A DNA stretch of 63,022 nucleotides, filler included, from Stramenopiles sp. TOSAG23-6 (lineage: Eukaryota), in NCBI GenBank assembly GCA_900128565.1. It is 6 parts of 6 records of this genome, joined end to end, with 100 filler letters (N's around TTAATTAATTAA, not from the genome) between each part and the next. Parts side by side here need not be neighbours in the genome. Positions count along the whole stretch, not along the records: positions 42,128 to 52,543 come from LT636315.1; 5 more parts are not named here. One strand, given 5' to 3'. A model generated the notes under the pieces. It searched no databases, was not told the origin of the DNA, and saw only the letters and a list, made by a program, of their open reading frames with translations. This document shows positions 4,390 through 52,643 of this stretch, in pieces (position 1 is the stretch's first letter; every line of letters starts with the position of its first letter). Both the position numbers and the translations under genes were made by a program.

Positions 4390-5072
4390 ATGGAGGAGTG
4401 GAGATTATTGATTCCTCTTTGTGTACTAGTGTACTGTGCGTTATATGTGAAAGGTTTTGCACCACCACATTTAGTACAAATTCAACCAAGTTTTGGTCCA
4501 GATCGAGGTGGAACTGACGTTTTAATAACTGGTAGAAATCTTGCTTTCCTTGAACAGGACATCAAAGTGTTTCTACGAGGAATCAAACGACAGCCTGAAA
4601 TCGTTGTTGGTTGGGAAAGCATACATCTAAAAATGCCATCATGCATTCGGTGCGGAACTGTACCAATCAATGTAATCGTTGGAAGCAAACGAAGTAATTT
4701 CTTGAATTATACATACACAAATGATTGTTTAGGCCCAGTCCAATCGGGAATTCCAATTTTACCACCACGCTTCTCAGAAAAAGAAAATTGCACATACGTT
4801 TTCATTTTTTTTTGTCTATTTTTTTTTTCGTACGAAATTTTGTACCTAACAAATTTTAAAAAAAAAAAAAAAATTTTTTTTTCACAATACATAATTTGCA
4901 CAGAACTTGTTCAATTGACTGAAGCAGCAGCACCAGATATGTCCACTTGGCAAGGTTTTAGAGAGACAATGCAGAGAGTTTGCAATACAATCCACTTTAG
5001 TAAATTTAAATATCCTGGTGAAATTTGTAAAGCTGATTATTCAATTGGTTGTCGTATATTAATGGCATCCAT
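4390..5072 (+). CDS. Secreted IPT/TIG plus saposin-B-like protein; exons 4390-4793, 4893-5072; truncated by the fold-back
   Basis: Signal peptide; PHLVQIQPSFGPDRGGTDVLITGRNL is an IPT/TIG signature; splicing yields a saposin-like CTICTELV..MQRVC..C..C pattern. Confidence 0.75.
4794..4892 (+). other. Non-canonical AT-AT intron (same family)
   Basis: AC|ATACGT..GTACGAAATTTTGTACCTAAC..CACAATACAT|A. 99 nt in frame; removal restores CxxC. Confidence 0.75.
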
Positions 5073-9120: not shown

Positions 9121-9535
9121 GTATACATCCATACATCCTTTTTGATTTGTCTCTTTTGTTTTATTTTTCTCAAAATTGAAATAAAAACAAGTGATCAAAA
9201 TCCAACAACTAACATTTAACATTTAACCCACACAACTGGAGATAAATTAGGGTTTGGATTATTTTTTTGTCTTTCCTATTTGATAAAAAATATAAATTGT
9301 ATACCTAACAAAAAAAAAGATTTTTTTTTTTTCAAAATATATTTTTTTCATCAAGATATTTTTTCATACGAAATTTTGTACCTAACAAATTTTTTTTTCA
9401 AAATTCTCTGTACATCATAGATGTAATACTTATTATTATTATTATATATAATTTATTGTCCAATAATATATATGATAGTTATACAGCTCTAAAGCTCTAT
9501 CATAATTCAAATTTGCAAAAAACAAAAATTGAAAA

Positions 9536-10305: not shown

Positions 10306-10442
10306 ATGTATTTTGGAAAAATATTTTAAAATTTTTTTTTACCAAAAAAAAAAAAAAATTTGTTAGGTACAAAATTTTTTGAAAAAAATAAATTCGATTT
10401 TTTTTTTTTTTTTCGGTTAAAAAAAAAAAAAAAAAAAAAAAA

Positions 10443-10542
10443 NNNNNNNNNNNNNNNNNNNNNNNNNNNNNNNNNNNNNNNNNNNNTTAATTAATTAANN
10501 NNNNNNNNNNNNNNNNNNNNNNNNNNNNNNNNNNNNNNNNNN
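10443..10542. other. Artificial contig linker
   Basis: 100-nt N run with central six-frame-stop TTAATTAATTAA. Confidence 0.98.
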
Positions 10543-11869: not shown

Positions 11870-14800
11870 ATGTCGAGGGAAAATTCACTGCATGAATATC
11901 GACGGCAGTCTCACAATCCAAACGGCAAGAGATCTATAAATTCTGCAGATAGTATCATCAATAACCGCTATATGATGGATATTTCTAATAGAAGCAACCA
12001 CGAAACTACACCTCCTTCAAGAGTGCGAAACTTCAATGCAGGAGTTACAAGCACGCAGTCGGATAGACAAAACGACCCTTCTGGTTCTCTGTCAAATCTG
12101 ATGCACTCTATTAGCGGAGCTGTTGGTGGATCAGCCACGTTTCATCTTCCAATTCAAAATACTAGAGTCCCAGAATATACACCAGGTTCACGTTTCCCTC
12201 AAACACCAGGGTCAGCTTTAAACGCAACCCTAGGCAATTTGAACCTTGGTACCGATGTCCCAACCTCGTTATTACCTATCAATCGTATAAAGAAAAAACA
12301 GTCTGTACATACTGTTTTAACAAGCAAGCCTCTCACCATTACGTATGGACATGAAATCAGCTTACGCTGCGGTGTCGAACGTGGTTTTCTCGGAGCAAAT
12401 GACAATGGTTCTTTAATAGTGTCTGGAACCGGAAATAATGCCGACGCCGAAATATTTACTCTTGTAAATATTCATTTAAGAAGTGATACAGGACCAGTTC
12501 GATATGGAGACTCTATTGCATTATGTAGTCACTCTTGTGGTGTTGGGGAAGGCAAATTTCTCGCTTGTGAAACTAATATCACTGATATTTCAAAATTACG
12601 TATTCCAGGAGGGGATCGCAAGAAAGCGTTAACTACAAAGTCTGGACCTGCTCTAAATCGCACTTCATTTGGATCTGCTGAAAAGTGGACTATATTGAGT
12701 GCAAGTACTCCTGGGCTAGACAGAAATTCCAAAACAAAAAATAGTGTAGTCTGTGCTGGAGATCGAGTAATCCTTCGTTGTATCCGTGGAACTTTTCTTT
12801 CTTCGTCCTCAATATCACAAAATCAACAAAACCAAAATATGCAGACGCCTATTCCGACTCTGACACCAAAATCAACATCCGCATCATGGATTATCACAAA
12901 AGGAAGGACTCCATGGATGCCTGATTGGTCGCGAACACGACTTTTTCTCACTGGTGATTTTCTTTCCTGTCCATCGATAAAAGATACTCAAACAAAATGT
13001 AGTGCTCCTGACCTAAATGATCATCCTTTGGAATTACAGGAACATATTATTATAGAAGATTTGCTATATACAATGGTAGGGATTGAAGGTCGCTATATAC
13101 GTATAATTGATACACCAAATATCTCTACCATGTCTCATTCTACTGAAATTACATTTTCTTTGGATAGTAATGTAATGGATGCTTCATTAGGGTTCTTAGT
13201 AAAACGCTTCTTACCTCTTTGTAATCATTATGCTTGGCTAGAACGTTTTGTTACCCGACATATGGGATATGAATTTGGAAGAACGGCTCATGCATTTTGC
13301 GCAGCTGTGAAACAACTCTTACGGGAATATGTACGTTTTCAAAATTTAATTTTCGAATTTTTTTTTGTACCAAATTTTGTACCTAACGAATTTTTACTAA
13401 AAATAATATTTTTCCAAAATACATACCTTACTAGTCACTCAACTAGAACACAAATACAGAATGTCTCAACTCAGTGTACAAAAACTTTGGTTTTATGTAC
13501 AGAATTCTTTGCATTTAATGCAATCATTGAAAAAAGTATGTATAGAAGCAGAGCATGAAGTGGGAGGAGCTCTTCTCAATGCGATCAACCGTGTGGCTAA
13601 ATTAGGAGGTAATGCAAATGCACAGCAGTTATTCCATTTTCTCACTAAAAAATCAGCCGCCCCATATTTACGAATGTTGGAACAATGGATCTATCGTGGT
13701 GTTGTAAATGATAATCACTCAGAGTTTATGATATCTGAAAATCGTCAATTGTCTAAAGAGCGACTAGCAGATGATTATAATGCACATTACTGGGATAAAC
13801 GTTGTACAATCTGTGATCATCAAGTACCATGGTTTTTAAAGCCTTATACCGCGAAGATTTTTACAACTGGAAAATATTTAAATGTCATTCGAGAATGTGG
13901 CCGAGCGATCGATTGTCCATTGATTACAATAGATTTTGTGTCAGCTCATAGTGGGTATAGCAAGATTATTGATGATGCAAACAAATTTGCTAGTCGAACT
14001 TTATTGGATATGTTACTTCAAGATGCGAAATTGATGGATCATTTAGCATCTTTACGACTCTTCTTTTTTCAGGCCAAGGGTGATGTTTTTGTTCATTTTA
14101 TGAATATAGCTTCTTCAGAATTGGATAAAAATTTTGTTGACATTGATATTGGAAAATTAGAATCATTGTTAAATGTTGCAATATGTGATACAACAATGGA
14201 TACTAATGCTGATCATATAACTTGTACCTTGGAACCTCTAAAATTATTTCATCTTCTAGAGGCAGTACATACTACATCTACTCAAGGTAGCTCCATTCCA
14301 CGTGGTCCAGGTGTTGACGCTCGAGATGCGGCAGTTGCAGCTCTTCGAAGTGCCCAAATGCATCAAAATAACTCTGTAAAAGGTATAGATAGCTTTTCTT
14401 TGGATTATCGTGTAGAATGGCCTTTATCGTTGGTCATTTCCCGACAAACAATTATCAAATACCAGATTTTATTCCGACATTTGTTTTTTTGTAAATATGT
14501 AGAGTGTCAATTATGTGAAGCGTGGGTACATCAACATACTGCTAAAGAGCTAAGTGTACAAGTCGCTATGAGAGTCAGTTATTGCTTGCGTCAAAGAATG
14601 CTCCATTTTGTTCAAAATTTAGTGTACTATGTTACAGTTGAAGTTTTAGAACCTCGTTGGCATGAAATGAAACAGAAATTACGCAAGGCTTCAACAGTTG
14701 ATGAAGTATTATCGTACCACAATGATTTTCTTGATTGCTGCTTAAAGGAAAGTTTGCTGACAAATCCTGTTTTAATTCGTTTATTGACTAAATTAATGAC

Positions 14801-18811: not shown

Positions 18812-19692
18812 ATGTTTGCCACAAAAGGTGAATATGATAGCGGTGTAAACACCTTTTCTCCAGAGGGCCGTCTTTTTCAGGTTGAGTATGCTATTGAGGC
18901 TATTAAACTTGGGTCTACTGCGATTGGAATCTGCACAAAAGAAGGAATCATCTTGGCTGTGGAAAAACGTCTCGAGTCTAAACTTCTGGAAGCAAGCAGT
19001 ATTCATAAAATCGTTGAAATTGATCGCCATATTGGATGTGCGCAGAGTGGTCTAACTGCTGATGCGACAACACTTGTGGAACGTGCCCGTGTGGAAGCGA
19101 CACAACATACATTTACTTATGATGAGCCTATGCCAGTTCGGTCTTTGACACAAGCAATTTGTGACATGGCTCTTAGCTTTGGAGAAGGCGGGGAAAAACA
19201 GATTATGTCTAGGTAAGTAACTATTTCACTTGGCATCTAATCATATTGTAAAATTCATTTGAAATTGTAACCTTCTTTTTTTGTTCTTTTTGTTGTATAA
19301 TTTTGTATTGAAGTAACCAAAACACTCATTTTTGTTTTATTTTTTTATACTTTTTCCATGAAAGACCTTTTGGTGTTGCCTTACTTATTGGTGGATGTGA
19401 TGAAAATGGCCCATCACTTTATCACACTGACCCTAGTGGCACATTTATTAAATATGATGCGAAAGCGACTGGTTCTGGTTCAGAAGGTGCTCAAAAGACT
19501 CTTGAAGATGACTATTCACCTGACTTCACACTCGAGGAAGCCGAACGTTTAGCAATGAATACTTTGAAAGAAGCCATGGAAGAAAAAGTAAGCTTAAAAA
19601 ACGTTGAAGTTGCAACAATTACACCCAAAGATGGATATAAACTTCACAGTAAAGAACAGCTTCAAGCTGCTATTGAAAGACTTGGTGCATAA
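18812..19692 (+). CDS. PSMA5: 20S proteasome subunit alpha type-5; exons 18812-19212, 19365-19692
   Basis: [50 protein letters not shown]. Confidence 0.96.
19213..19364 (+). other. Canonical GT-AG intron (the only one found in the window)
   Basis: AG|GTAAGT..GAAAG|A; restores MSRPFGV; lacks the family hairpin. Confidence 0.92.
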
Positions 19693-20370: not shown

Positions 20371-20932
20371 TTATTTTCCCTTTGGACAATTTTTTTTTTT
20401 ACATTGTGTACATTTGTTGGACCCATTACGGTACCCTCTTAGAGAACCATATCTAGCAGCATTCATACATCCAAGGACTTGACAGCGAAAACCACCACCA
20501 CATTTAGCACATAATTCATGGTCAATTATTGCGGTGCCATCTTTATTAGGACCACGTGCAGCATTTTTATTGCATATTTCTTTTTTATTGCCTATTTCTT
20601 TCAAGCATTTCTTTTTTTCTCTATGTTTACCACATACAACCAGAGGGCCCCTTTTGACTTTTGAAAACAATGCAATATTATCACAATTTTCTGCCTCACA
20701 TACTTTCCTACCCGTTTCCAAATTTCGATGCTCAGGACAAAGCTCTATGATTTGGTAATATATTTCAAATATTTGTATTTGTTAGTTTTATAAATTTCAA
20801 AATAAATTGAGGTTTTGAAAGAATATCAAAAAAAAATAAAATACTTGATTTTGATGCAGCTTTAGCAGTACATCCATCTTTTTCACATATTCCAGTACGA
20901 CCTCCATCGGGTTGATGCATACAACAATAATC
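20371..20932 (-). CDS. 3' part of a Cys/His-rich repeat protein (CxxxxC..CxxH units); tentative GT-AT intron at 20760-20844
   Basis: CEKDGC, LCPEHR, CEAENC..VCGKHR, CQVLGC. The intron candidate has GTATTT..ACTAAC..GAAATAT. Confidence 0.55.
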
Positions 20933-28300: not shown

Positions 28301-31300
28301 ATTTGTACTAGTGCTCGAAGCACCACTAAATGAAAATGTATTCGTCTTTTTATCATTTTTTTCCAGGTAATCTTTCTTCGTATTCACAACATCATTACCA
28401 CTCATACTACTCGACGCACCTTCTAATGCAAATGCATTCATCTCACTAACTGTGGACTTATCTACTGATTTAAAGTTTTTCACAAATACAGGCGAGTTTC
28501 TTTTACCTGGTGACTCAGGGCTCAAACTTGTCATTTCAGCAGATTTGTTGCCAATGTTTCCAGATTTAGTTGGTGAAATGTTTTGAATCTCTTGAAGCCT
28601 ATCTTTGATTCGTTCCATGTGTTGCTGACTACGATTATACAATTCCAATCCTTCTTTACGCAATTTATTGGTTACACTGACACTATTCACCGATTTCGGT
28701 TTTATTTTTCTACCACCAGAATGACTACCATTAATAGCATTCCCGATTTGTAATAAATGATCGAGGAGATTTTTACTTACAGTTGGATTCGTATAATGTA
28801 ACTGGCGTATTTTAGTGATAGATACCGCTTTGGGTTTACCCGCGTTTACTGGTACTAGCCATTTATTGCCTCTATTGATTACATTTGACGAAGAAAGTTG
28901 TTTACTTGGAAAATAACCAACGTTTGTATTGCTAACTTTCGGACTAATAATATCATTAATATGCATTTTCAATTCCTGTGCATGATTGTAATGTTTTCGT
29001 ACAATTTCCATGACATGCGACGAAGTTTGTATATTCATAAATGAAGTGTGTCTTTTACTCCGAGTATTGCACGATTCCTGTCTTTGTTTTTCTAGTAATT
29101 TTGTACGTTTTGATACTTCTGACAGTCTTGAAAACACAAGTTTCTTCAAATCAAATAGTTTAGTTTTCATCGCTGCAAGATCTTCAGGAAGGGGTTGACG
29201 ATCAAGAAGTTCTGATAAATCCTTTTTCTGAGACAATATAATTAAACTGTGCGCCTCTTCAACACGGCGATCCACATTGATCATTTCTTGTTCGGTTTCT
29301 TTAACTTGCAACAAAGAAGCCGAAATACTAGATACAGCATCCTTGCAATTACGACGAGTCTTTTCTGTATTCACACTGAGTTCAGAAATAGAGTCAGCGA
29401 GAGAGTTCAATACATTATCGGTTATAGTTGGAACTTCTCTGAGTTTTTTTAACGTTAAATTTTCAAACATATCATTCGTTCGATCAAGAATTTCTTGTGC
29501 TTTGTCAACGGGTCCATCTTTTCGCTTTGTAAAATTTGAAGAAATATTATCAAATTTTGTCTCCCCTTTCAGCTTGTGTGTTTTAATTGTCGGTTCTACA
29601 CCAAATTTGGTACTTCTAAAATCACCACCAAATGAAACTGCATTTTTCTTTTTATCTTCTTCTTTAGGTTTCACATCAACTGTCTTTGTACTAGTGCTAG
29701 AAGCACCACTAAATGAAAATGTATTTGTCTCATCAACTGGAGCATTTCCGACTAAAGGTTGATCATTTACAGTAGTTTCTGTTTTGATTAGAGTCCCCCC
29801 CTCAGATTTTTCGTATTGTTTGGGTTCTATTAGAGTCTTCACAAGTTGTCGTCTGAGATCTTGCAACGTAAATAAACACAATTCTGCATCAGACGTCGCT
29901 ACTGCAACAACAGGACATGGCGGCAATGGCTTTTCAGCAGGGTTATCATCAGGTATTGGAGTATTTGATGTCAAAAGTAGGGAAATGCCCATACAAAATC
30001 CAGGGAATTCACCCTCATACCCATCACCTACCTTCATACAAATCCAAGACCCACTGCTATCATCAAAACCAACGACTTCTACTTCGGAGCTTTGATTGTG
30101 GCCTACTAAAATCATTCTCCACTCAGGAAAGAATGCCACATGAAATTTCGGCGAACCAGTCTCAGCATCAGTGTCAGGCACACAAATATGACCGAGTGAT
30201 TCGCACGAGTAACCACTAAATGACACAGACTTGTCACCCAATGTCCACATTGTTAAAACATGAGTCGTATCACCGTCTTCATCTTCGTACCCATAACCTA
30301 CTAACAAACTTTTAGTTTCAACCCATTTTACAAAAAATGCACGAAAAGTTGTTTTTTCTTCAACTTCTAGTAAGGCACATATTTTTTTAGGAAAAGATAT
30401 GGTTGTAATATTATCTACACGATTGTCCATTACTTGAAGAATTTCAATCATACCATTTTTCATACCTAAAGAAATACAATCTCCCTCCGGATTCCACGAT
30501 GCAGACATGTATTTTGGAAAAATATTTCAAGAAAAAAAAACTAAAATTTGTTAGGTACAAAATTTCGTCCAAAAAAAAATTTCGAATTTGAAAAAAAATA
30601 AAACATACATATACGGTGATTCCGATGAACGGCGAGCTACAACCGAACAATCTACATTTGCAATCGCTAATGTACCAGAAGATGATAAAGATAATAACTG
30701 AGACTTTGACCATTCTATCTGCTCAACTGCGACAGATTCACTTTCACTACATTGAAATGATCCAATTTCTTCTTCAGTGGACAACAAATTTGACATATTG
30801 AAGAGTGAAATTTTGCCATCAATGTTTGCACATGCGAGAGTGTTCGAATCTTTAGAAAGTGAAACTGCATCCATATTTTTTCCCAGCGAGTAGGGGTGAG
30901 CTAACATTGGAACTTTACCCGGATCTTTTATAGCATCTCGAGCAGCTTTTTCAATTTTACGACTGGAGCATCTCAGAAAGCCACCAGATTTGGCAGCAAT
31001 AACAACAGTTCCATATGTATCACTCACAGTGAGAGCATTACGTCCAACGCTATTTAATCCAGATGCACCGAAATTTAAACCACGATCAGAATCATCTTTA
31101 GAAAATTTCTTTAGTCGGAGCTCTTCTACTTGTATTTCATCAGACTCCGTAACCTTCACGACGATATCACTACTATTGCACTTTTCTTTATTTACACCGG
31201 ACTTTTTATTCTTCGCATCTACAACTTCTACTTGTTTGGTCTCTGTTGGAGTATTTACATTGGTATCATTTATCTTGTTTAGTAGTGTGTCTGTTTCACT

Positions 31301-31505: not shown

Positions 31506-31605
31506 NNNNNNNNNNNNNNNNNNNNNNNNNNNNNNNNNNNNNNNNNNNNTTAATTAATTAANNNNNNNNNNNNNNNNNNNNNNNNNNNNNNNNNNNNNNN
31601 NNNNN
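31506..31605. other. Artificial contig linker
   Basis: N run with TTAATTAATTAA. Confidence 0.98.
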
Positions 31606-31655: not shown

Positions 31656-34600
31656 GTATGGTTGCATCAATACTCCTTGCAGCACTATACAAACTCAGTA
31701 GTAAAGAATCTATGGATAGGGTCATGTTATATAGGCATTCTCGTGAAGATACTCGAGGTGAAAATATGTCTCATATTCAAAAAATGAATGTACACGAAAT
31801 AGTTTCTAATTTAAGAAAGCAAGGATGGAATTTTATAAAGCATGTAAAAACTCCCGTAGATGAATTTGATACAACAATTCCTACGAAACAACTCTTAATC
31901 AATTCTAAAAGAACATGGGAAGCTACGTATTTGAGAGTGATGACCAGTTTGCGAAAGGTTATCGTTGAAAATGGAGGATTCCAGGCCCTCACCAAGTTAC
32001 GTCGTTGTATTGAGAAATTTGGATACAACACAGAGATACAAGCAAATGATGTGGCATTACTTATAAGAGAGTGTAATTTTAATATATCTTTATCTTACGT
32101 AGAGGCCAATGCTGTTATTCAGGGATTAGCTAGCAAGTACGAAAAAAAACCAAATGCTATAGACTTACATAATACTATACAAGGGCTTGATATTCCAGGT
32201 GAAAAAGTCAGGGAAACTATTAAGATGGCGTTTGCGATGATTGGAACTGTTGGAGGAGACGAAGAACACAGAGGGTCTGATGGTCTAATTGTGGCTAATC
32301 AAATGGGGGGCGATGGCAGGGAAACCGTTACACTCACTGCAATTCAGAAGGCATTTAATAGCGACTATGATCATTTAGGTAAAGCTTTTAATTTGCCGCC
32401 AATCTTGCGAAATAGTTCTCAGAGTGTGGAGGAAACAAATTACGATTCTGCCGAAGCAAGATGCAAAGAAGAATGTGTCAGAGAAATATCAGAAGTATTT
32501 CGCGAAGCTGCGGGTGGAGGTAGTGATCCCAAAATTACTATTGGGGAGTTTGAAGACTATCATGCGGCTCTTTTGTATAGACATCATTTGTTGAAAGAAA
32601 TACATTTTCAAGAGGCATTAACTTCAACAAGAATGTCAAACACTCAAGTGGCACAGTGGCACAAAGTTTCAGCGATGAGGCGTGGAAAGGTCAAAGATCG
32701 TTTTGCCTCTGCTTTTAGGGCTTTGCTGTGGAATATTTGGCATTTAGAAAAAGCTCCATTTGTACCAGTATCCTCAAACACAGACAATATTCAGGCTCAA
32801 ACACTCTCTATGCAACCTAAATCTGTGGAGGAAGTTGTATCAAAATTGAAAGATATTCTCCATCTTGGTTTACATAAAGGCAGAGAAAAAAATGATGGGG
32901 TTAGGGGAATGCATGAATTTCGTCGTATATTGAAAACAGCAAGTGAATATACTGGTATGATATCATGTGACATGTTTGAAAGAATAATGGGTAGATTTTT
33001 AGTGCAACACCCAAAAGACTTGAGTTGCCCCCCACTGACATTTGCTGACATCCGGACACTACAAAAATATTATCAAAAATTACCTGGACCAAACAAAGTT
33101 GTTGTAGACACCGATCGTTTGTATTTGGATGTCATCGGTAACTACGACAAACTTCGTCGTCGTCTAGCAGAAAAAGCATTTTCTCATATAGATATTGGTA
33201 ACAATGGATCGGTGCCTCTTATAGAAATATTACAACTTTACAAAGCTGATAAGCATCCTGATGTATTGGCTGGGCGTCGAAGTATTAATGAAGTAGAAGA
33301 AGAATTGAAAACTTGCTTAATTGGAAAAAATGGATTGATTCAAATTAATGATTTTGAAGAATATTTCATGAAGGTATCAAGTGTTTCAGATGACGACAAA
33401 TACTATAATATGATTATATATAACTGTTTCAGACTTTTTGAATTACAACGATCTCGAAAACGCAGGTACGAGCAAAAAGAAACCTCACACAATACTGGAG
33501 GATATCGCAATTCATCATCAATAACTTGGGTACCACACAAAAATAAATCTTTTCTGTCTACTTTGACACTTGGTCATGGTATCGAAGACAAAACTTTAGA
33601 TCCAAAGTTTATAAACAAAAAAGTAGACCAAAAGTGCACTAGCGTTAATAATAAGTTACAAAATGAATCCGAAAAATTCAATGAATTCAATGCACTAATA
33701 AAACGCTTCCGATGTCTATGTATGTTTTATTTTTTTCAAATTCGAATTTTTTTTCGTACGAAATTTGGTACCTAACGATTTTTTTTTGAAATATTTTTCC
33801 AAAATACATTAGTTGAACGAGGAGTTTATGGTTACTTTAATTTACGCAATGCATTACACGCCGCAAGCTGTGAGAATCAGGGAATGCATTTTGTGACGTT
33901 TTCGAATATTTTACGAAATATTGGATTTGCAATTTCTGAAAATGAAATAAAGATTGTCTTTGATATGTTACATGACTCGAATGTACCGAAAGATATGATA
34001 GACGCCGATAAGTTTCTTAAAGTAATACGTGAAGGAATGATTGCTGCAAGAAGAAGAATAGTAAAGAAAGTATTCGAAAGTGTTTCTCAAAGAAAGTTGA
34101 AAAACAATGGTGGAAAGGTTTCTGATAGAGTTCCAGTGAAATGTTTTCATGAGATATATAATGCAGAAAATCACCCAGACGTTCTTTCGGGGACAAAGAA
34201 AGCGAAAGATATTTTGGATGAATTTAAGAACACCTTTCCATTGAATGGTACTATATCTTACAGTGATTTTGAATCGTATTATGAGGCTATTTCTCTTACA
34301 GTACCGGAAGTTAAACCTTCAGACAATAATATGATGATGATGATGTGGAAAGTTTGGGACTTGAATAAGACAAGAATTGTCAACAAAAAACACAAAGATG
34401 CAAAAATAAATTTTGGAAAAACTTCTATGTTTTCCGATAAGTATTCACACACATATAAATATCACACTGATTCGAATCATGTATCCAATATTCAAAAGCT
34501 GTCATCAGATGACCATGCAACAATAGGTGGAGGCAATACGCATAATGAAACTGCACATTTCAGAAATGAAGAGCAAAAAATGTCTAATCATTACCGCGAT

Positions 34601-35457
34601 GTTCGCTTACATAAAGCAAAGACTGGAATCCATAAAGGATTTGCATGTCCCACTACGTATAAGTATGTATGTTTTAATTTTTGAAAATTCGAATTTTGTT
34701 TTCGTACGAAATTTTGTACCTAACAATTTTTTTAGATTTTTTTTTGAAATATTTTTCCAAAATACATGCTGCTGGTACAAGACCACGGATTGTAGGGAAA
34801 GGACCGCGTGTTGGAGAACATGAATATCGTACAGGAAACCAATCAGTTAAAATAGAAAAACACAGTCTTCTTCAACGAATTCGAAGAGTTTTATGGCAAA
34901 TCAATGCACCAGGCACTTTGCATTTGAGAGCGGAGATGGAAAATCGCGATATGAAAATGCAAAAATGGCTTGAAAAAACGGAATTTATTGCAGCTCTTCG
35001 TGGAGTTCACTTAAACCTATCAGATACTGAAAATAAAGCGTTATATGGTTGGTACGCGAAAGATTTGCCAAGTAGAAAGTACTATACAAAAATCCAACAA
35101 AAACCAAATCTTCATAATGTTTTTATGTACGAAGAATTTTTAAGCGATTTGAATGGGAAGCTTTCAAAGCAGCGTAGGGACATCCTGGAGGATTCTTGGC
35201 AAAAAATAGACAAATATAAAAAAGGATACTTAACTCTTGACGATATTCAGCTTTCTTATCATCCCGTGTATGGCCATTTAAAGAAAGAGGAAACGGCAAA
35301 ATCGCTACCCAATAGACAAATAAATGAATTCAAAAGATATGGTAAAACAATTACCTTTGATGAGTTTTGTGATTTTTATTTGCATAAATGTGCCTGTCTG
35401 GAGGATACCCAGTACTTTCAGATGCTTGTCTGCAATGATTGGGGTATACAAAAATAA
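31656..35457 (+). CDS. Multi-repeat calcyphosin-like EF-hand protein, 5'-truncated; exons 31656-33719, 33810-34666, 34768-35457
   Basis: AFSHIDIGNNGSV, YKADKHPDVLAG, YNAENHPDVLSG, ITFDEFCDFY..DTQYFQMLVCNDW. Confidence 0.8.
33720..33809 (+). other. Non-canonical GT-AT intron
   Basis: AT|GTATGT..GTACGAAATTTGGTACCTAAC..CCAAAATACAT|TA; removes an in-frame stop. Confidence 0.87.
34667..34767 (+). other. Non-canonical GT-AT intron
   Basis: TAT|GTATGT..GTACGAAATTTTGTACCTAAC..CCAAAATACAT|GCT; joins two frames. Confidence 0.85.
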
Positions 35458-35700
35458 TATCTTACACATATACTGAAGTAATAGTATTACGGTTGGCAAA
35501 TTGTGATGAAAACCATGTACATTTTCAAACAAAAATTCAAATGTTTGTTAGGTACAAAATTATCTACAAAAAAACATTCAAAAAAAAACAAATAATAAAT
35601 TTGAAGTATTATTACGACTGTCATTCAATTTATTCTAACAATTAAAGTTTTAAATTATTTTTCAACATTGTTGGGGAAAGGATTCTCGTGATCAATTAGC

Positions 35701-37234: not shown

Positions 37235-39019
<1,785 letters not shown>

Positions 39020-39282: not shown

Positions 39283-41978
39283 TTACATTTCTACTACAGT
39301 TTCCTCCTGAGTTTGCCATTTGCCTTCATTGATTTCAGCAACTGCTGTTTCTACGTTAGAATTATCTGGTAAAATTTCAACAGGTTCGCCTTCATTGATT
39401 TCAGCATTTGCTGTTTCTACATTAGAATTATCTGGTAAAATATCAACAGGTTCGCTGCTTCCCTCATGATGATCCACATTCCAACCATCGCCATCCTCTT
39501 CTTCATTTAATTGAGTTAGGAATGCACTCGAAGTATTTTTCTTGACATCTTTTATAGCTTCTTCTGTAGTCTCTTCCTCTGTCTTTGTAATATCATTTTC
39601 ACCTTCTTCTGTGGTCTCTTCATTTGGTTTTGTGTCTTCTTTTGCAGCTTCTTCTGTAGCTTGCTTTTCAGCCAATTGCAACTCGGCAGCCTCTTTTGCA
39701 GCTTCTTCTATAGCTTGCTTTTCAGCCAACTCAGCAGCTTCTTTTGCAGCTTCTTCTGCGGCTTGCTTTTCAGCTTCTTGTGCTGCTTCTGCTTCTTCTG
39801 CCAGTTTTTCAGCTTCTTGAGTAGCTTCTTCTGCAGCCTCTACGCCTGCACGGGCTGCACTTAGTGCTTCATCAATGGCATTTGTTATAATGGCTCTCGC
39901 TGCAGCTTTTGCTTTCTGAATAGCCGCAGCTTGTGCAGCAACTACTGCAGCTGCTATAGCTGCATTACGAAGTCTAACAGCTTCTTTGAGTTTCTTAATT
40001 TTTTTTACAGCTTCTCCAATTTCAGCTCGCTGTGTCTCGGAAACTGCTTTTAATATGTCAGTTCTTCTAACTAGTTCAAGAGTCTCCGCTTCCGTTTTCT
40101 CTATCCTTTCATCTATTTTTTCTATGCGAGAGTTCAGAATTGAGCCCTCTTTATCTATTACGTATTCGGTACTCGTTAGAGAAGACTTCATTCGTTTAAT
40201 TTCCCTTGGGGTTTCTGGAACTTTGCCAACCCATTCTGGGGTAACACCACATTTACGAAGTTTAAGCTCTGCGGCAAGTTTCCGACATGAAGCGTCAAGT
40301 CGTACTGATTTCATTTGAATTTCTAATCTCTCTTTTCTTTCGCGCCGTGAGTGTTTAGTATCATTACATTTTTGCATTTCTTCAAACTCATTACGCAGTT
40401 CATTCAATTCACTTAAAAGCTTTTCATATTCTGTTCTCTCTGTGGAAGGTTTTATTTCCATATCAATGGTACACTCATGAACATGTTTATATCTTTCAGC
40501 TATTGCTAAGGATTCTTCTTTTAGCATTCCATAAACTTTTCCAAGTTCAGCAACTTGATCTATTTTTTGCTGGCTTCGATCTCTCCAACTCATGTGAGCG
40601 ATGGTGTTGAAGTCAATGCTCTCACTAGGTGAATCTTCTATTTTTTCTGCTTGTACTTTTATCTGTTTTGGTTTTGTTTTCATCCTTTTTTGCTTTGGAG
40701 CCTTTACTATAGATGATACTGCATTTTGTTTCTGGTAATCCTTTACAAGTTGAATCAAGTGTTTTTTCTTCCCTTTAGTAGATAAACCAAACTCCTTACA
40801 ATAAGTTTTTAAAACCGCAACTTTCATTTTTTTTAATTCCTTATGAGTAAAAGCTACTTCTTTCTTGTATACCTGCTTTAGCTTGGACACTTTTTTTGTG
40901 GTACGTTTATCTGACTTTGATTGAGGGGCTTTAGTTGAATTTGATTGATTGACAAACATTTTATCATTTTTAACTTTTTTGCGCAATCGTTTGGAAGAGC
41001 CTATTTGACCGTCAAGTAATGTATTGTACCGCTTCTCTTGTTCCTCAAGTTCTTTTGCTTGTGCATTAACTAGACGAAGTTTATGTATTGTAAAAAATAT
41101 TTTTTTTTATTTTTTTTAGAAAAAAAATTCGTTAGAAGATATTTTACAAAATTTAGATGAGGTAAAAAGAATAAATTTGAAATTCATGATGAAAATGTAC
41201 ATTATCGGTTGTCTGTAATTTTCTTTTCATCGTGGCTACCAAATCGCCCTGATTGTCTTGTTTCCTTTGCTGAAACTCTCGCATTTGATCTTTCACCATG
41301 TATTGTGAAAAAATAATCGAAATTTGTTAGGTACAAAATTTGGTACAAAAAAAAACTAAATTTGAAATTTAGAATGAAAACGAACATCGCCCGGTCAACT
41401 TCTCCATTCAACTTACTACAACTTTTTCTAAGTTGCGCATTCATTTGTACGAGAGTCTCAATTTGAAGCATTTCATGTGAAAAATATTTCAAAATTGTAA
41501 ATTCGTTAGGTACAAAACCTTTGCATTGTCCATGAAGAAAACATCGTCTATTACGGAATTTCGTACGAAAAAAACAATGTCACAAAAAAAATGTAGGTAA
41601 AAAATGGATGATGAAAACGTATATTTTTTTTCGTATGATTTTAAGACTTCTCTCTTCAACTTTACCCAAGAGAAACGCCCGTCGGTATTCATGAGTTCCT
41701 TCAACCAATGGATTTCCATGTACTGTGAAAAACAATTCAAACATTTGAAATTCGTTAGGTACGAAATGTAATACGAAAAAAAAAAATTAAAAAGTCAATT
41801 TTGAAAACACGAAAAAACAAATTAAAATTAAATTTTGAAAACGTACGTGGCGATCGGCAAGTCTACCATCTTGTGTTCTATGCACTGGGCTACTACTGCT
41901 TCGAAGCTTGCTACCGTTGAATTCCTTTATTGATTTTATTGATTCAGTGCTATTTTCCTTTTCAGGAGTTGATATTAT
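39283..41978 (-). CDS. SAP-domain coiled-coil protein, 5'-truncated; exons 41978-41847, 41717-41623, 41469-41386, 41297-41201, 41082-39283
   Basis: LKKMKVAVLKTYCKEFGLSTKGKKKHLI (SAP). Removing four family introns gives one open frame. Confidence 0.8.
41083..41200 (-). other. Non-canonical GT-AT intron
   Basis: AAT|GTACATTTTCATCATGAAT..CTAAC..TACAATACAT|AAA. Confidence 0.8.
41298..41385 (-). other. Non-canonical GT-AT intron
   Basis: AT|GTTCGT..GTACCAAATTTTGTACCTAAC..CACAATACAT|G. Confidence 0.82.
41470..41622 (-). other. Non-canonical AT-AT intron
   Basis: AT|ATACGT..GTACCTAAC..CACATGAAAT|G; keeps frame IRKK-M-LQIE. Confidence 0.72.
41718..41846 (-). other. Non-canonical GT-AT intron
   Basis: CAC|GTACGT..CGTACCTAAC..CACAGTACAT|GGA. 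Confidence 0.82.
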
Positions 41979-42027: not shown

Positions 42028-42127
42028 NNNNNNNNNNNNNNNNNNNNNNNNNNNNNNNNNNNNNNNNNNNNTTAATTAATTAANNNNNNNNNNNNNNNNN
42101 NNNNNNNNNNNNNNNNNNNNNNNNNNN
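42028..42127. other. Artificial contig linker
   Basis: N run with TTAATTAATTAA. Confidence 0.98.
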
Positions 42128-43130: not shown

Positions 43131-43334
43131 TATTAATAGTTATTATTCTACAAATACGTAGTCAAGTAATAAAAATGGTGTCTTTTTCGAATTTTTTTTC
43201 ATTCATCGGCGTTTTTACGTTTTTTTCATCATGATCCGTTACTTTTTGTGTTCACCCGATATAGCTACTACTACGACAAACGCTGTAAGTCTTCACACAC
43301 ACTTGTAAACAACTGTAGCACAACAATACTTGTA

Positions 43335-44833
43335 ATGTCACAACGTAATCCAATCGGCATATTATATACAAATGATATAAATTCGTCTTCTCCTGGTTCT
43401 CCTGAGGAGTCTGATGATTTTGTTGATCCTGTGCTGCCAAGTGGAGCAAATGATTTATATTTTGAAAATATAGAGGGTAACTATTGGAAAAATAATAAAC
43501 GTTTACATCCATACTCGAATGGTTGTAAAAAATACACATATAGTGTAGATGATCTTATACCGAAACTTGATACCAACGCTCGTAATGAAGCTACACATAT
43601 TGTCAAGGTTGATTTAGAGAGGCGATTCAGCAAGGAACAAAAGAAGAAGAAACATGTCCGTTGTATCGATTGTTGTACGTTTCATTTTTTTTTTTCAACA
43701 AAAAAATCGATTTTTTTTTCGTACGAAATTTTGTACCTAACAAATTGTACAAAAAAAACAAAATTTTTCACAGTATATGTTGTGCATTTTTTCATCGAGT
43801 GGAATTAGAAGTGGCGACGTTTTTTATATTCATTAGTACGACAATGCAATTATATTTTTTCGGATTGGTTGCGTTGCCAACAGTAGATGCAACTCAAATA
43901 CTTCCAACTACAATTCATCAAATTGGTGTTCTGTACGTTTTTTTTTCTCTTGAATTTTTTTTTCATACAAAATTTCATACCTAACGATTTTTTTTACCAA
44001 AATTTTTTTTTTTTTCACAATATATGGCTATATTGGTCATGTTAGTTATATTCGTTGCATGGATTTTGATAAAAAATGCTAGCGTTGCTTGTCATTTACG
44101 GTTTTGTTTTATTTCAACACTTATTATAACATCAATACAAATATATTTCGCTTTTATGGTAATTAAGGATACACACAATGCATGTATGTCTTCAAAAATT
44201 GACTTTTTTTGTTTTTTCAAAAAAAATTTCATTAAAAACATTTCATACGAAATTTTGTACCTAACGGATTTCAAACGTATTTGAATAAAAAACAATTCAC
44301 AATACATCATCTTCTGCAAGTCTTTTTCAATCGAACGAAAAGTTAATAGATGTATACGCATCAACAGAAAATACTTTGGAACATTTAAAAATTACACCGG
44401 AAGTATTAGACACATGTCCTGCTAGTGGTAGAGAAATCAAATGTGGTTGTATGTTGTATAAAAATATATTTTTTTTTTTCGGATTTTTTTTTTGTTTTTN
44501 GGATTTTGTTTTTTCAATTTTCTTTTTATTGAAATATATTTTTGAAATACATGCGATCCAAGTCAATATGATATAGCAGTAGCTATTGTCGCAGATTCCG
44601 GGGTATCAAATCGAACAAAAAATGATATCCAATGGGCTGGTTCTTGTATTGGTTTTGAGGCTCATTGCGAATCATCAGAAATAATTGGAAATTTTTCAGA
44701 AGATTGTAAAAAAAACACAAAAAATGGAGAATTTTGTTTAACATGTAAAAATGGATATGAAGGAGGATCTCTTTTATGTAATAATGATAAGCAATGGAGT
44801 ATACACAAATTTTGTGAAAATATAAATGTTTGA
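43335..44833 (+). CDS. Multi-pass membrane protein with Cys-rich C-terminus; exons 43335-43674, 43779-43932, 44026-44183, 44308-44448, 44553-44833
   Basis: Four family introns join five segments in frame; about three hydrophobic helices. Confidence 0.72.
43675..43778 (+). other. Non-canonical GT-AT intron (register-diagnostic)
   Basis: TT|GTACGT..CACAGTATAT|GT; sliding 2 nt upstream creates TGA. Confidence 0.82.
43933..44025 (+). other. Non-canonical GT-AT intron
   Basis: CT|GTACGT..ATACCTAAC..CACAATATAT|G. Confidence 0.8.
44184..44307 (+). other. Non-canonical GT-AT intron
   Basis: AT|GTATGT..GTACCTAAC..CACAATACAT|CA. Confidence 0.82.
44449..44552 (+). other. Non-canonical GT-AT intron; core motif absent, contains an N
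   Basis: TT|GTATGT..GAAATACAT|GC; opens a final exon of over 90 codons. Confidence 0.7.
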
Positions 44834-45098
44834 TAAAATTGATAAATTGGTAGCGTCCCTGGGGGAGTGTTATATATAGCCTATTCTGGAAATCATTCTC
44901 AAAACGCCAAAAATCGAATTAGAAACGAAAGGCGTCGAAAGGATATCTTTGACAAAAACACGAAAACAGAAGAAAAACGTCAAAAAAAATACCAGTCAGC
45001 TGACCAAGGAAACTCAGACTTACCTTGTGGTATCAATTCTACCATTTGTAATTTGTTTGTATATTGGAAACAAAGTATATTTGCGACTATTTTTCAAA

Positions 45099-45892
45099 AT
45101 GAATTATTCATGTATTATACTGCTATTAGTAGTGACAATAATAAGAGAAAGTAAAGGAGCTACAAGGGCAGAACAAGCACTAAAGCTAAAAGACAGTACC
45201 GCTTCAGTGCCTTCACATTTAACTAAACGTGAATTAGGTAATTTCTCTGCTGTTTCACGTACAATGCACAAGGCAGGTGATCGTGAATTTAACAACCGCG
45301 CAAAGTATATATTTGAAGGGGTGAAAGGACTGTTTGGTGAAAATGAAGATATTGGTTCTGTCAATAAAGGAGACACTGAGACATCAACCCAATGGCTACG
45401 CCGTGTAGAAGGTAGTCATTATCATCGTAGGGTATTGGAAAGAAAGGCTTTAATTGTATTGTATGATAATACTGATGGGATTCATTGGGAAAGGAGTGAA
45501 AATTGGAAAACAGATTCAGATATTTGTGACTGGTATGGAGTTACGTGTACTAATGGAAGTGTTACTAAATTGGCATTGAATCGCAACAACCTATCTGGTT
45601 CAATTCCGAAAGAAATTGGTCTACTAAGAAATCTTGATATGTTAGTCTTGGATGATAACAAACTAACTGGTGCAATACCAACGGAAATTGGTCAACTAAC
45701 AAATCTCGAAGGATTGTACTTGGATGACAACGAACTATCTGGTTCAATACCAAAGGAAATTTTTCAACTAACAAAGCTTCAATATTTGTTCTTGTATAGC
45801 AACAAACTATCTGGTTCAATTCCCCAAATGAAATTGGTCAACTAAGAAATCTCGTGGATTTGAGATTGGATGAAAACAACAGACTCATTTGA
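45099..45892 (+). CDS. Secreted leucine-rich-repeat protein with an apparent frameshift near 45825
   Basis: Signal peptide; ERKALIVLYDNTDG..W..CDWYGVTC cap; LxxNxLSGSIPxEIG repeats; the last repeat continues in another frame. Confidence 0.8.
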
Positions 45893-46624
45893 GAGTCTGA
45901 CTTGGTTTAAATGAGAGAGTCCAACATATCTTAAAAGTAAATGGCAGTCTAAATTGGAGTTCATTTGAAGTAAAAATGTCTAAAATCACAAAATCCCTTG
46001 TGCTTATATATATATATAGTAAGGTTTCCCGAATCTTGGTTGTTATGATTCTTGTTGATTATTTATTTATTATTGTGTAATAAATAATTCCTTATTAAAA
46101 ATGTAATTTTTAGTTTTTAGTCGTTTTTAGTTTTGTTTTGATTATATGATGAATTAATTTTGGAAAAAATATGTTACTTCTTGCATGATTTATTGAATGA
46201 ACTTGTTATTAATGAATATAGTAGTTATGTAAACACTTTAAATTGATAAAAAAAATTATTCATTTTGAGCATATTTAGCCATTATTATCGCTAGAATCGC
46301 TAGAATGATGCAAGATTCAATAATTTTTATTCGATTTTATTAATGGTTAGGGTTAGGGTTAGGGCAAAGGTAGGTCATTTTGCACCGGCAGATGCTCTTT
46401 GCTCGCGCTCTACGTAAATACAAAAAAAGAGGGATCACAACTCTGATTCTGAAAAGACAAAATTTATGTATTATTGAGTGAGTTTTCATTTGCACAGCTT
46501 CATTTACATTACACAATTTTAGTTGATTGATAGTGCAAGAGCTACAATCTAGTAGTATTGTATTGATCATTTGAAACAAAAAACGTAAAACAGTTTTCAA
46601 AACGACTTCTGCAAATCTATCCAT

Positions 46625-49600
46625 ATGACTTCGCGGGTGGTTGTTTCACCAGAAAGCGACACGAGTAAAGTACCAACTACATATGCTAATCAATCATTAA
46701 AGGCACATGCAAAAATTTTGTTTACACTTTCAAATCTCTCTCGAAAGATTTTAAAAAAGACTCGCGTTATAGCACCCAACAATGCAAAAAAAGGACGAAG
46801 CTCTGTCCGCCTCAAAGTTGTTTGGAATAAAGGAGAAATACCAAATGTCCCGTCAATTTATTCGAGTAATCTCATTCAATATGATAGAATATCTAAATGT
46901 CATGTACCATATATGCAACAGCGTGTAAATAAACGAAAGTATCCGCAAAAGGGTAGAAGAAATTCTCCATCTAAAAAGGCTAAAAAAGCAGTTAACGTTG
47001 TAAACAATATGAACGTAAATATCCTTCAGTATAATAATATTCCCCAGCATCATAGTACTTATGCATATAATATGTATCCACATGATATGAGATACAACGG
47101 AAATTTGCCATACATGCCAACTGCAGCTAATTCTACAACACACCCGCATCTTAATGGTACTGCGAATATGTTTAACAATGAAAATGCACTTTTACAACAA
47201 CAAAATAGACACACCAATAGAGTTAATAACAAAATGTATAATACCCCAGTACATAATAATATGAAACAATATAAGTATATACCACATCACAACATTAACA
47301 ATACGTACCCTATTGTACCTGCAGCAGACGGTAATTTTGTACTTAACCACAAACAAAATCTACAAAATCTACAAAATGCAGAACAACAAAACCTACAAAA
47401 ACTCAAAAAAAGTTTTGAAAACTCTCATCCTACAAAAGTCGATGATCCTTATACAGTTCATGGACTTTCACCTGATGATGTTTTGTTTGCATGTACAAAG
47501 AAGCGAAGAGAACGAATTCGATTACGTCGTAAGAGAGCTTTACGAGCTACACGAAATAAGCCTAAAAAACTACAAAAAACATCGAATGCTTCAACAATTG
47601 GAGGCAAGGGCAATAGAAGAGGTACAGCAGCTGAAAGAAGAGCACGAGCACAAGCAGAAGAACGCGTGGTTCTTGCGGAAGCTAACAAAAAGTTAAAGAC
47701 AATACAAAACGAGTTGGCTGTGTATAATGTACGTTTTTTATTATTTCGTGTTTTTTTCTTTATTTTTTTCGATTATTTTGTTTTTTTGAATGTTTACATT
47801 TTTATAATTTCACAAGTAACAAAATTCTTACACTGTACATTGCAAATGACAAAAATAAATATATGTTTCTCATTATATGTTATCCGTGATACCGAACAAG
47901 AATTAAATATTAGAAAAGCATTACTAAAAGCGTATGAATCTTTAGTAATTTCAATGAAAAATATTTTTGAAATGGAAGAAAAAAATAGAAAATTAGCTTT
48001 ACACACGAAATCACAGAAAGTATTACATCTTATTGAACAATGTCGTCTTTTATATACAAAAGAGTATACAGAAGCAAATAATGGTTCACTTAGTGTAGCT
48101 GAAGAGCATTTGTTAGTGACTAATCACGTGAAACAGTTAAAAACGATACAACAACAAAAAAAAAAGTGTAAAAAAATGTTTGAAGATGTACTCCAAGAGT
48201 TGAGTGATTCATCAAATACACGAAATCTTTTACATTTAAAAATGGAAAGAAAAAAATATCTCAGTGAAAAATATACAATAATGTGTTTGTTTTCATTTCA
48301 AATGTTTATTTCAAATGTTTATTTCAAATGTTTATTTCAAATGTATTTTTTTTTTTTTTTTTTTCATACAACATTTCATACCTAACAAAAAAAATCAAAA
48401 AAAAATATTTTCCAAATATACATGTCAACAATTACAAACATGGGAATCTAAAACAGAACAAGATCTTTTGGATATTCAAAATAATTTAAAAAACAATAAA
48501 AAAGTATTGCATTCTTCATCAAACGACATGAATGATGAACAAAATTCACAACATTCAAAAAATTCAAAAAATTCAAAAAATATGGATTCGCAATTGTCTA
48601 CTTCTACAGAAACTACAAAAACTACAAAAACTCAAACAACGGAAAGCAAAATTTTTGTTCATTCTTTAGAAGATTTTCGTAATTTAACAAATCTTGCGGC
48701 AGTTGATACTTCTGCTAATTCAAGCACACCTCGAGGTACAATTTTTCTACGTAAATCGAAACAATCTTATGAAAAGAATGAAGAAAATATTCAAAATGAT
48801 GAAACATCAAAATCAATAAAAAATAATGGAGTTGAAATTCAAGTAGGAAAATTTGTAGTGAAAACAGAAAGTCTACACTCAGATGAAAGGGTACAAAATA
48901 ACAATATTTCGTCTTTGAAATCATCTGAACAAACAAATTCGTCTTTGAAAGCATTTGAACAACGCGAAATTGGTCTTTCAGAACGATTACGAGAAAATGG
49001 ATTACCACTAAAACATCGAAATGCTTTATTACGTGATAGCATTCTTCGTGAAGGATCAAAAATTATGTCTGGATTTCGTGCATTGGAGGCAGAGCGATTG
49101 CTTGCCATACAACGTGAAAAACGAAAATCAAAAGATGAATTTTTTGAGGCATCAAAACGACAACAAATGTCAATTTATAGACATTTAAAAATGCAAGAAA
49201 AAAAAAAAGAACATTTAAAAGCGGTACGTTTCCATCTTTTTTTTTTTTTTTTTAACATTTTTTTAACATTTTTTTAAAACTTTTTCATCATTCATTTGTA
49301 AAATATCTGATATTTTTTTGTCTGTACACTAACGAATTTTCAGATTTTATCTATTTTTTTACAAAACATGTACAAAAAAAAATGTTAGAACAATTAAAAC
49401 TTCGACAAAGTACAGAAATTACAAAAAAAATGAAATCTTTACAAAATGAAACAGCTGATGTCAAAAAAACACATCTTGAACAATTACAAGCTACACATCA
49501 ACAACATATAAATGAATTATTAAGAATTCAAAAACAACAATGTGATACATTAGATATAAAACAACGTAAAGAAATTGAATTAAATATAAACAATAACAAG

Positions 49601-51057
49601 ATATTGCCAGTGTTACAACCAGTGCTGAGTTCAACATCTAAACGTGTTGAAGGTTCTGTTTCTATGAAGAATACTGCTAATAATAATCAAAATAATAATA
49701 ATATGAATAATAATGATATTCTCAATGATATTTCAGCTAGTACTAGTAGTAGTCAAAATAATACTTATAATAACATGAATAATAATGATATTCTCAATGA
49801 TATTTCAGCTAGTACTTTTAGTAGTCAAAATAATAATAACATGAATAATAATGATATTCTCAATGATATTACAGCTAGTACTACATTTTATTCTTCTATA
49901 AAAGTACCTGAAATTCCATTAGATAAATTAATAATTACAAAAGAAGAAACGATTAAAGAGAGAAAAGAACGTAAAAGAAAAAGAAAAATGCTAGTAGAAG
50001 CTCAAATTTTAAATATTGAATATCCACATCTAAGGCAATGTGAAAAAGATGCCAAAGAGGCTAAACAAAGCGCATTAGGATTCATTTCTGATATACTACC
50101 AGATGTATTTGATGTAGAAAAGGATACGAAAAATACAACAATTGTATCAAGTGACACGAAATCTGTTGATGAATCTCAAATTATTCAAAATGATACACCC
50201 GAAATATCATCAAATATTGTACATACAGTTACCACGTTTAATACTATGAACAACAACAGTAGTAGTACTAGTAGTAGTAGTAGTGAAAGTTCGAATATAA
50301 CTACACTTGAAAATTCTGAAAAAAAATTGAATAATGAGAAAATTGTTCCAATAACGAAACGATTTGAAATGTTTTTACCTATTTGTGTTGATGAAAATTG
50401 TTCAAAACCACGGTATAAACAAAATATGCACTGTAAAGATCATTTAACAGAATGTCCAATTTTGGAGTGTAAATATATCGGTTGTACTAAACAAGCACAA
50501 GGAAGGACTCCTTTTTGTATTTCTCATGGTGGAATATGTTATATTTTTTTCAAAATATGAAATTTTTTTTTTCATAACCCTAATACCTGACAAAATCTAT
50601 TTTTTATACTATATTGTAGACAATATATGGTAAACGATGTATCGTTAAAGGATGTACCAAATCAGCTCAAGGAAAAACACGAAAATGTATATTGCATGGA
50701 GGAGGGAAACGATGTGCTTTTGAAGGTTGTACAAAATCTGCAAGAGGGAGGACAAAATTTTGTGTTGGACATGGAGGTGGCAAACGTTGTTTTTTTGAAG
50801 GATGTACAAAATCAGCTAGAGGTCGATCTAATTTTTGTGTGAGTCATGGGGGAGGAAAACGATGTTCTTCTCAAGGTTGTTCAAAATCTGCGCAAGGCTG
50901 TTCAAATTTTTGTAAAGCACACGGTGGCGGAAGACGGTGTAAATATCCAAATTGTCGTAGAACTGGAAAAGGATCTGAGGAGTATTGTACCATTCATGGT
51001 ACTCAAATATGTCTTTTATTGAATGAAATGAAAGAATCGACATCAGCAACTGTTTGA
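46625..51057 (+). CDS. Large low-complexity/coiled-coil protein with C-terminal WRKY19-like zinc-finger repeats; exons 46625-47728, 47879-48284, 48424-49223, 49370-50533, 50629-51057
   Basis: Repeated GGGKRCxxxGCxKSAxGxxxFCxxH; four AT-ending introns join the ORFs. Confidence 0.78.
47729..47878 (+). other. Diverged GT-AT intron (in frame, 150 nt)
   Basis: AAT|GTACGT..CATTATAT|GTT; read-through is an F-rich stretch inside a coiled coil. Confidence 0.6.
48285..48423 (+). other. GT-AT intron with an internal 14-bp tandem repeat
   Basis: GT|GTTTGT..(TTTCAAATGTTTAT)n..ATACCTAAC..AATATACAT|GT. Confidence 0.75.
49224..49369 (+). other. Non-canonical GT-AT intron
   Basis: GCG|GTACGT..ACACTAAC..ACAAAACAT|GTA; the upstream TTCAG is out of frame. 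Confidence 0.78.
50534..50628 (+). other. Non-canonical AT-AT intron (cannot slide)
   Basis: GGA|ATATGT..TACCTGAC..CAATATAT|GGT; restores HGG/GKRC as in the downstream repeats. Confidence 0.85.
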
Positions 51058-52543: not shown

Positions 52544-52643
52544 NNNNNNNNNNNNNNNNNNNNNNNNNNNNNNNNNNNNNNNNNNNNTTAATTAATTAAN
52601 NNNNNNNNNNNNNNNNNNNNNNNNNNNNNNNNNNNNNNNNNNN
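52544..52643. other. Artificial contig linker
   Basis: N run with TTAATTAATTAA. Confidence 0.98.

Follow-up and report, generated by a model that had tools for sequence, protein, structure and literature searches.

The AG at the 3' end of introns has been explained structurally by two contacts: in the yeast P complex, G(-1) forms a pair with G(+1), and A(-2) one with the branch A, and Gln1594 of Prp8 reads the pyrimidine at -3 (10.1101/212811). The closest described exceptions, in the accessible parts of two reports, are the transposon-derived non-canonical U2-type introns of Fritillaria borealis and F. pellucida (PMC13326754, PMC11282704), to which the introns described here bear a likeness. 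AT is the commonest 3' end in both systems (34% and 44% in F. borealis and F. pellucida, 80% here), a YAY triplet is found both just before the donor and as the last bases of the intron, traces of terminal inverted repeats (TIR) and target-site duplications (TSD) are present, and most introns are not of the canonical GT-AG kind; Fritillaria has lost the minor spliceosome, and no U11, U12 or U6atac was found here. Introners that recruit their 3' splice site from the TSD have also been described, for example in Chrysochromulina (accessible part of PMC9860276), and a later introner survey, in the part available, discarded non-canonical families without RNA support (PMC12130899). No report of the present GT-AT family was found in a literature search with limited subscription coverage, nor in the accessible parts of 10.1101/2022.09.24.509304, 10.64898/2026.04.17.719054 and PMC12130899, and "GT-AT" occurs 0 times in the part of the PMC9860276 supplement that was searched.

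The window, i.e. the whole stretch of DNA analysed (63,022 nt), is AT-rich eukaryotic DNA from the marine protist Stramenopiles sp. TOSAG23-6 in several pieces joined by N-linkers, and the best matches of its KAE1 gene, environmental proteins and oomycetes, place it among the stramenopiles. Within its first ~10 kb (1-10500) the sequence is duplicated in inverted orientation, which probably reflects an artefact of amplification or of assembly. Many of its genes carry introns of one family, ~100 nt in size (Table 1). The fragmented and incomplete assembly of this genome (21.1 Mb, 6,236 contigs) holds 4,473 exact matches to the pattern TACCTAAC-N25-50-ATACAT, a number inflated by duplicated contigs, against 6 for the reversed control pattern; the family count is far above chance.

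Copies were scanned in the window and 80 further stretches of the same genome (853,869 bases in total), where 381 branch candidates gave 224 non-redundant copies passing donor and acceptor profiles, and 157 were dropped. The copies were selected on the branch motif TACCTAAC; the profiles took no account of the bases before the donor or of the terminal dinucleotide of the intron, and the donor profile did include the GT positions. The first two bases are GT in 204 copies, AT in 9, GA in 5, GC in 3, GG in 2 and CT in 1, so that 20 copies lack a GT start and there is some laxity at +1 and +2 too. At the other end, AT is found in 180 copies and TT, GT, AG, AC or another dinucleotide in 44, the canonical AG being found in 8 of the 224. 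The label "GT-AT", used in the initial annotation, is therefore apt for the commonest form and fails as a rule; the end tracks a 2-bp target-site duplication. A reading frame was callable for 178 copies, which are sense-oriented within an open frame, and not for the other 46. The distance from branch A to intron end has a median of 39 nt (5-95% range 33-49), and an AG is present between branch and end in 62 copies. The N-linker gaps 10443-10542, 31506-31605, 42028-42127 and 52544-52643 lie inside or beside family introns, which suggests that the repeat breaks the assembly. T-rich stretches that resemble degenerate family introns, their branch or donor motifs being weak or absent, were seen at about 47700-47900 and 44450-44560, and on the minus strand at 35520-35620 and 20730-20850.

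Table 1. Introns of the family, one branch motif and one contrasting canonical intron, with positions along the window. A slash marks the exon-intron boundary.
Feature	Position	Strand	Remarks
Family intron, AT...AT (A at +1)	4794..4892	+	
Family intron, AT/GT...AT	13331..13424	+	
Contrast, non-family: canonical AG/GTAAGT...AG intron of proteasome alpha-5	19213..19364	+	junction read in protein; without family branch motif
Family intron, AT/GT...AT	30507..30608	-	
Family intron, AT/GT...AT	33720..33809	+	
Family intron, AT/GT...AT	34667..34767	+	
KAE1/OSGEP intron 1, GT...AT	37646..37742	+	excludes shifts <=-3 and >=+1; His in 96/97 and Cys in 96/97 homologues
KAE1 intron 2, GT...AT	37859..37947	+	AG 5 nt before end would shift frame
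KAE1 intron 3, GT...AT	38108..38205	+	pre-donor AC
KAE1 intron 4, GT/GT...GT	38273..38392	+	GT duplication; ambiguous, as sliding by 2 nt yields GT...AT with the protein unchanged
KAE1 intron 5, GT...AT	38541..38688	+	two branch motifs
KAE1 intron 6, GT...AT	38861..38983	+	AG 5 nt before end would shift frame
Family intron, GTTCGT...TACAT	41298..41385	-	
Family intron, GT...AT	41718..41846	-	pre-donor AC
Family intron, GT...AT	43675..43778	+	104 nt; phase 1; pre-donor TT; GTACGT...CAGTATAT
Branch motif TACCTAAC	43734..43741	+	presumed branch A at 43740, 38 nt before intron end; family-wide branch logo
Family intron, GT...AT	43933..44025	+	pre-donor CT; Leu in GT register, Met if slid
Family intron, AT/GT...AT (slidable)	44184..44307	+	
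Family intron, GT...AT	49224..49369	+	146 nt; pre-donor CG; branch A 37 nt before end
Family intron, AT...AT (A at +1)	50534..50628	+	within WRKY19-type zinc-finger repeat; removal restores HGGGKRC

The dinucleotide before the donor equals the last two intron bases in 159/224 copies, where permutation gave 117.6 on average and at most 132. Of the 44 copies with an end other than AT, 25 repeat it (TT 11, GT 8, AC 3, AG 2, GG 1), against an average of 2.7 and no more than 9 in 10,000 permutations. The excess is strong at -1 and -2, weaker at -3 (74 vs 64, s.d. 4) and absent at -4 to -6. A 2-bp target-site duplication flanks an element GTA...TAC, and it is because of this duplication that the introns can be slid. 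The element, about 90-135 nt long, has very short inverted ends of 3-4 bp, GTA[T]...[A]TAC, complementary in 177, 202 and 199 of the 224 copies at positions 1-3, in 118 at position 4 and in 3 at position 5. Its parts are the donor GTAYGTTT, the branch TACCTAAC and a fixed 3' box TTTT[C/T]CA[C/A]AATAC, and it shares with introners the many similar copies at unrelated genic sites (the 4,473 matches; nearest-neighbour identity among the 224 copies has a median of 0.86 and is at least 0.90 in 57) and the target-site duplication, here of 2 bp. In KAE1 the introns 38541-38688 and 38861-38983 have duplicated branch blocks, with two TACCTAA motifs each. An autonomous partner was sought at two Harbinger-type transposase loci, and neither has family-like ends. 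At L141 (contig C2432 and three like contigs) a Harbinger-type transposase without family-like ends faces a second ORF that is Myb/SANT-like by eye. No link between these transposases and the family was seen.

The initial annotation had read the family in the GT register and denied it a U12-type identity, and three independent lines, namely junction stops, conserved residues and the 5' end of U1, support both points. Fritillaria has RNA proof of its junctions; those here are predicted from frames and homology, and the small share (0.09) of the sequence words of 43200-51000 present in one metatranscriptome run speaks neither for nor against them. In the GT register, 0 of the 178 framed copies have a junction stop. 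Sliding 2 nt upstream (-2) gives stops in 6 of the 46 copies whose junction changes; for two of these six the flanking exons belong to a single Pfam domain (MatE, Aa_trans), and two are in copies ending AA or AG. Stops per changed copies at other shifts are 3/21 at -1, 8/92 at +1, 0/127 at -3 and 1/159 at -4, so that stops alone do not exclude the last two. The upstream AT is lost with the downstream AT kept in 46 copies, and the reverse holds in 9. In framed copies ending AT, the base at -2 is not A in 13/43 copies where it is a wobble position vs 12/100 elsewhere (Fisher p=0.015), and the corresponding test at -1 gave no significant effect (6/57 vs 5/86, p=0.35). Given the wobble excess at -2, the upstream AT behaves as exon.

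Homologous proteins narrow the register further. For KAE1, 97 of 120 hits were kept by a length filter of 300-420 aa. Once its six introns (37646-38983) are taken out, the predicted protein runs colinear with its closest homologues, and the alignment to these is free of indels only if all six end at the family boundary. A shift of -3 destroys His137 (96/97), Asp229 (94), Met300 (92) and Asp358 (90), a shift of +1 destroys Cys138 (96/97) and changes Ile176 (90), and shifts 0, -1 and -2 give the identical protein at all six introns. In an MFS_5 gene, the intron L026:3380-3475 (GC...AT) leaves a Gly, found in 116/119 homologues (a count that leaves out the identical hit P0121), at shifts 0 to +3 and not at -1 to -4. 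The KAE1 limits and the MFS_5 glycine together yield register 0. One column points the other way: at the zinc-finger junction L079:5862 the commonest homologue residue is Asp (42 aligned hits of the 150 distant zinc-finger hits examined), the slid reading, and Val, the GT reading, lies outside the top six; the column is variable. The junction of UDP-GlcNAc pyrophosphorylase (UAP; L080:6766) lies outside the PDB alignments. The public protein models P0009 and P0121 share exon sequence with these genes and contain translated intron pieces at family introns; gene models based on GT-AG fail here, since both read through or mis-cut the introns.

The case had been made initially from four copies, at 43675, 43933, 49224 and 50534. 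As claimed, the slide at 43675 brings in a TGA (ID*CCAF vs IDCCCAF in the GT register) and the slid starts would be CT at 43933 and CG at 49224. At 50534 the slide does yield HGDGKRC in place of HGGGKRC, and the gene has HGGGKRC or HGGGRRC in its four remaining full WRKY19-type repeats; the copy itself starts ATATGT, however, so that it reads AT...AT, and sliding it by 1 nt leaves the protein unchanged. Sliding was also said to make most copies AT-AC: an AT...AC or AT...AT reading is available in 134/224, but none of the four becomes AT-AC (slid, they read TT..AT, CT..AT, CG..AC and GA..AT). The absence of the U12 donor was confirmed family-wide, RTATCCT occurring within -6..+14 of 0/224 donors, as was the long branch-to-end spacing (38, 41, 37 and 38 nt in the four copies). 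A homologue of the gene at 43675/43933 was searched for and none was found, and its exons have no Pfam match. At 43675 there is an in-frame canonical GT-AG alternative (43675-43799), and at 50534 the in-frame GY-AG alternatives found all have a donor displaced by 5-39 nt and an acceptor displaced by 9-43 nt. The four copies argue against the slide and are by themselves insufficient to prove the AT end; they are weaker than was stated, and the register holds on stronger, family-wide grounds.

Genes for U5, U2, U1 and U4 lie head to tail within 640 bp (L001:9-645, on contig C1146, with a duplicate on C6122), and U6 lies elsewhere (L003). The sole U1 snRNA gene found (L001:349-508) reads AAACGUACAUG. 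Its 5' end is AAACGUACAUGG, compared with AUACUUACCUGG in the Rfam consensus, and the complement of this end is CAT/GTACGTTT. The three changes each match AT/GTAYGTTT, facing donor positions -1 (T 86%), +4 (C 46%, T 53%, the T forming a G-U pair) and +7 (T 98%). Over the 224 donors, Watson-Crick pairs with this U1 average 9.04/11 in the GT register (shift 0) and 3.41 at -2, with no other shift exceeding 4.81, and the consensus U1 would reach 6.79/11 at shift 0. The gene scores 54.1 bits, below the Rfam cut-off of 69.5, its loops binding 70K and U1A differ from the Rfam consensus, and folded alone it is mildly better than shuffles (z -2.2). A canonical U1 was sought by Rfam search and by pattern search of the assembly, and none was found. 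A metagenome scan for the U2-U1 cluster in relatives gave 42 loci, 0 of them with a U2 core upstream.

The other snRNAs are conventional: U2 GUAGUA, U5 loop 1, U6 ACAGAGA and the U4 core motif are canonical. The motif TACCTAAC is UACUAAC with one extra C, and the branch-pairing region of U2 is canonical. The introns have two features of the U2 type, namely a GT/GC donor (GT 204, GC 3 of 224) complementary to U1 and to U6 ACAGAGA, and a branch site that pairs with U2 GUAGUA (in copies selected on that motif). The U12-type branch TCCTTAAC occurs in 0/224 introns, and the search for minor snRNAs proposed at the outset gave no match to U11, U12 or U6atac among the 41-45 candidates scored for each in the incomplete assembly. 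A changed Prp8 finger was rejected as an explanation, as 599 residues, alpha-finger included, are conventional compared with human. One U2AF65-like gene was the only strong match, and no U2AF35 was found among 5 zf-CCCH loci read (of 16 hits) and one RRM locus. In the 854 kb, AT-rich candidates for AG/GTAAG introns number 6, about 3 of them intron-like, and canonical introns are a minority. Such AG/GTAAGT introns (e.g. 19213-19364) match the variant U1 at about 6/11 positions, which makes a second, unassembled U1 possible.

Taken together, the GT register, the U1 match and the 2-bp duplication argue that this is very probably a transposon-derived family read as GT...NN (mostly AT) by the major spliceosome, which would cut at the element's own GT. 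The copies would be one short, non-autonomous transposon-like element (introner) that makes a 2-bp target-site duplication, mostly AT, and brings with it a U2-type donor, a branch site and a fixed 3' box. The downstream duplicate would supply the last two intron bases, so that excision from GT through this duplicate leaves the exon with no base gained or lost. The candidate U1 would be the working U1 and recognise the donor AT/GTAYGTTT, and U6 ACAGAGA would take +4..+6. Branching is expected at the A of TACCTAAC and ligation after the downstream duplicate; what positions the 3' site, we infer, is the branch together with the 3' box of the element. The base at -3 is C or T in 99% of copies (C 83%), that at -2 is A in 87% and that at -1 is T in 91%, so most copies could still make the contacts at -3 and -2 but could not form the pair at -1. 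On this view the contacts of Y(-3) and A(-2) would usually be retained, and splicing would do without G(+1)-G(-1) pairing. The family presumably spread by DNA transposition. A broader reading, to which we give somewhat less than even credence, is that a transposon invasion rewrote the splice code of the lineage: the single U1 of the major spliceosome would have been re-specified at three bases to fit the element's end together with its target duplication (AT/GTAYGTTT), the 3' site would lie two bases past the AATAC box and be nearly any dinucleotide (AT, TT, GT, AC, AG), and G(+1)-G(-1) would be dispensable genome-wide with an unchanged Prp8 alpha-finger.

Other explanations concern either where the introns are cut or what cuts them. 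A cut 2 nt upstream, giving NN...AC (mostly AT-AC) introns for a U12-type or minor-like spliceosome, would account for the 134/224 slidable copies and agree with the C at -3 (83%), and CCTAAC resembles the U12 branch, which is CCTTAAC. AU...AC ends are tolerated (accessible part of 10.1101/212811), and the slid residue is favoured at the one variable zinc-finger column (L079:5862). Against this stand the 6 stops in 46 slid copies, two of them in copies ending AA or AG, the broken MFS glycine, the lack of RTATCCT near all 224 donors and of U11, U12 and U6atac matches in the incomplete assembly, and a U1 that pairs in the GT register only, so that we regard this cut as highly improbable. Another possibility keeps the GT and moves the acceptor: in some copies, 43675 included, the true acceptor would be a nearby AG, and the AT end would be the element boundary only. 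The in-frame option 43675-43799 and the AG between branch and end in 62/224 copies fit this, but KAE1 is indel-free only with all six introns ending at the family boundary, and the AGs 5 nt before the ends of its introns 2 and 6 count against an AG acceptor there because they would shift the frame; an AG acceptor is improbable.

As for the machinery, a cut at GT could be made by a specialised second apparatus, one with a variant U1 or with two sets of U2AF like that of Fritillaria, with an unassembled canonical U1 serving GT-AG introns. The coexistence of a minority of canonical AG/GTAAG...AG introns, the fragmentation into 6,236 contigs and the use of duplicated U2AF subunits by Fritillaria (accessible part of PMC13326754) all speak for it; we nevertheless think it unlikely, as the variant U1 sits in the sole U5-U2-U1-U4 cluster found, neither Rfam nor pattern search gave a canonical U1, and a single U2AF65-like gene is the only strong match. 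Removal without a spliceosome, either as in the nonconventional introns of euglenids via inverted ends or by excision at the DNA level, would suit the inverted ends with 2-bp duplications and the varying last dinucleotide. It is scarcely credible for an element whose inverted ends span a mere 3-4 bp, which keeps a near-invariant branch motif and a donor matching U1 and U6, and 178/224 copies of which are sense-oriented in an open frame.

If the major spliceosome does read the family as GT...NN, thousands of GT introns ending in U, some in TT or GT, would be a natural test of which contacts are needed, and a U1 gene matching the end of a mobile element would be a direct case of a spliceosome adapting to an invading transposon. 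This route of U1 adaptation was, according to the Fritillaria study, not taken in Fritillaria, which has AG and other non-canonical donors, U1 5' ends that do not complement these donors, and a duplicated U2AF (PMC13326754). The element described here, in a different supergroup (stramenopile), carries a GT donor, and the U1 gene of the genome matches that donor.

The likeness to U12-type AT-AC introns lies in the ends, which the slid reading mimics, and in a strongly conserved branch motif; the U12-type branch lies about 10-20 nt from the intron end, and the present introns lack the RTATCCTT donor and the TCCTTAAC branch and place their branch about 39 nt from the end. By these sequence features the family is not of the U12 type. 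The introners with a co-opted TSD, such as that of Chrysochromulina, are like the present family multi-copy, bring their own 5' site and are removed exactly. In the accessible part of that report the Chrysochromulina example has 4-bp TSDs, and TSDs often include the GY/AG bases (PMC9860276); the TSD here is 2 bp and usually not AG. On the side of U1, the parts available of 10.1101/2022.06.08.495308 describe a Mastigamoeba balamuthi U1 whose ACGUAC pairs with GUACGU, the same ACGUAC core as here, and an Entamoeba U1, ACAAAC, whose extra 5' A was suggested to pair with U at +7, as would be the case here. Unlike in those two, the U1 base facing exon position -1 is also changed here (C9 to A), matching the T at -1; that T belongs to the target duplication, and the donor family it precedes is transposon-derived and has non-AG ends.
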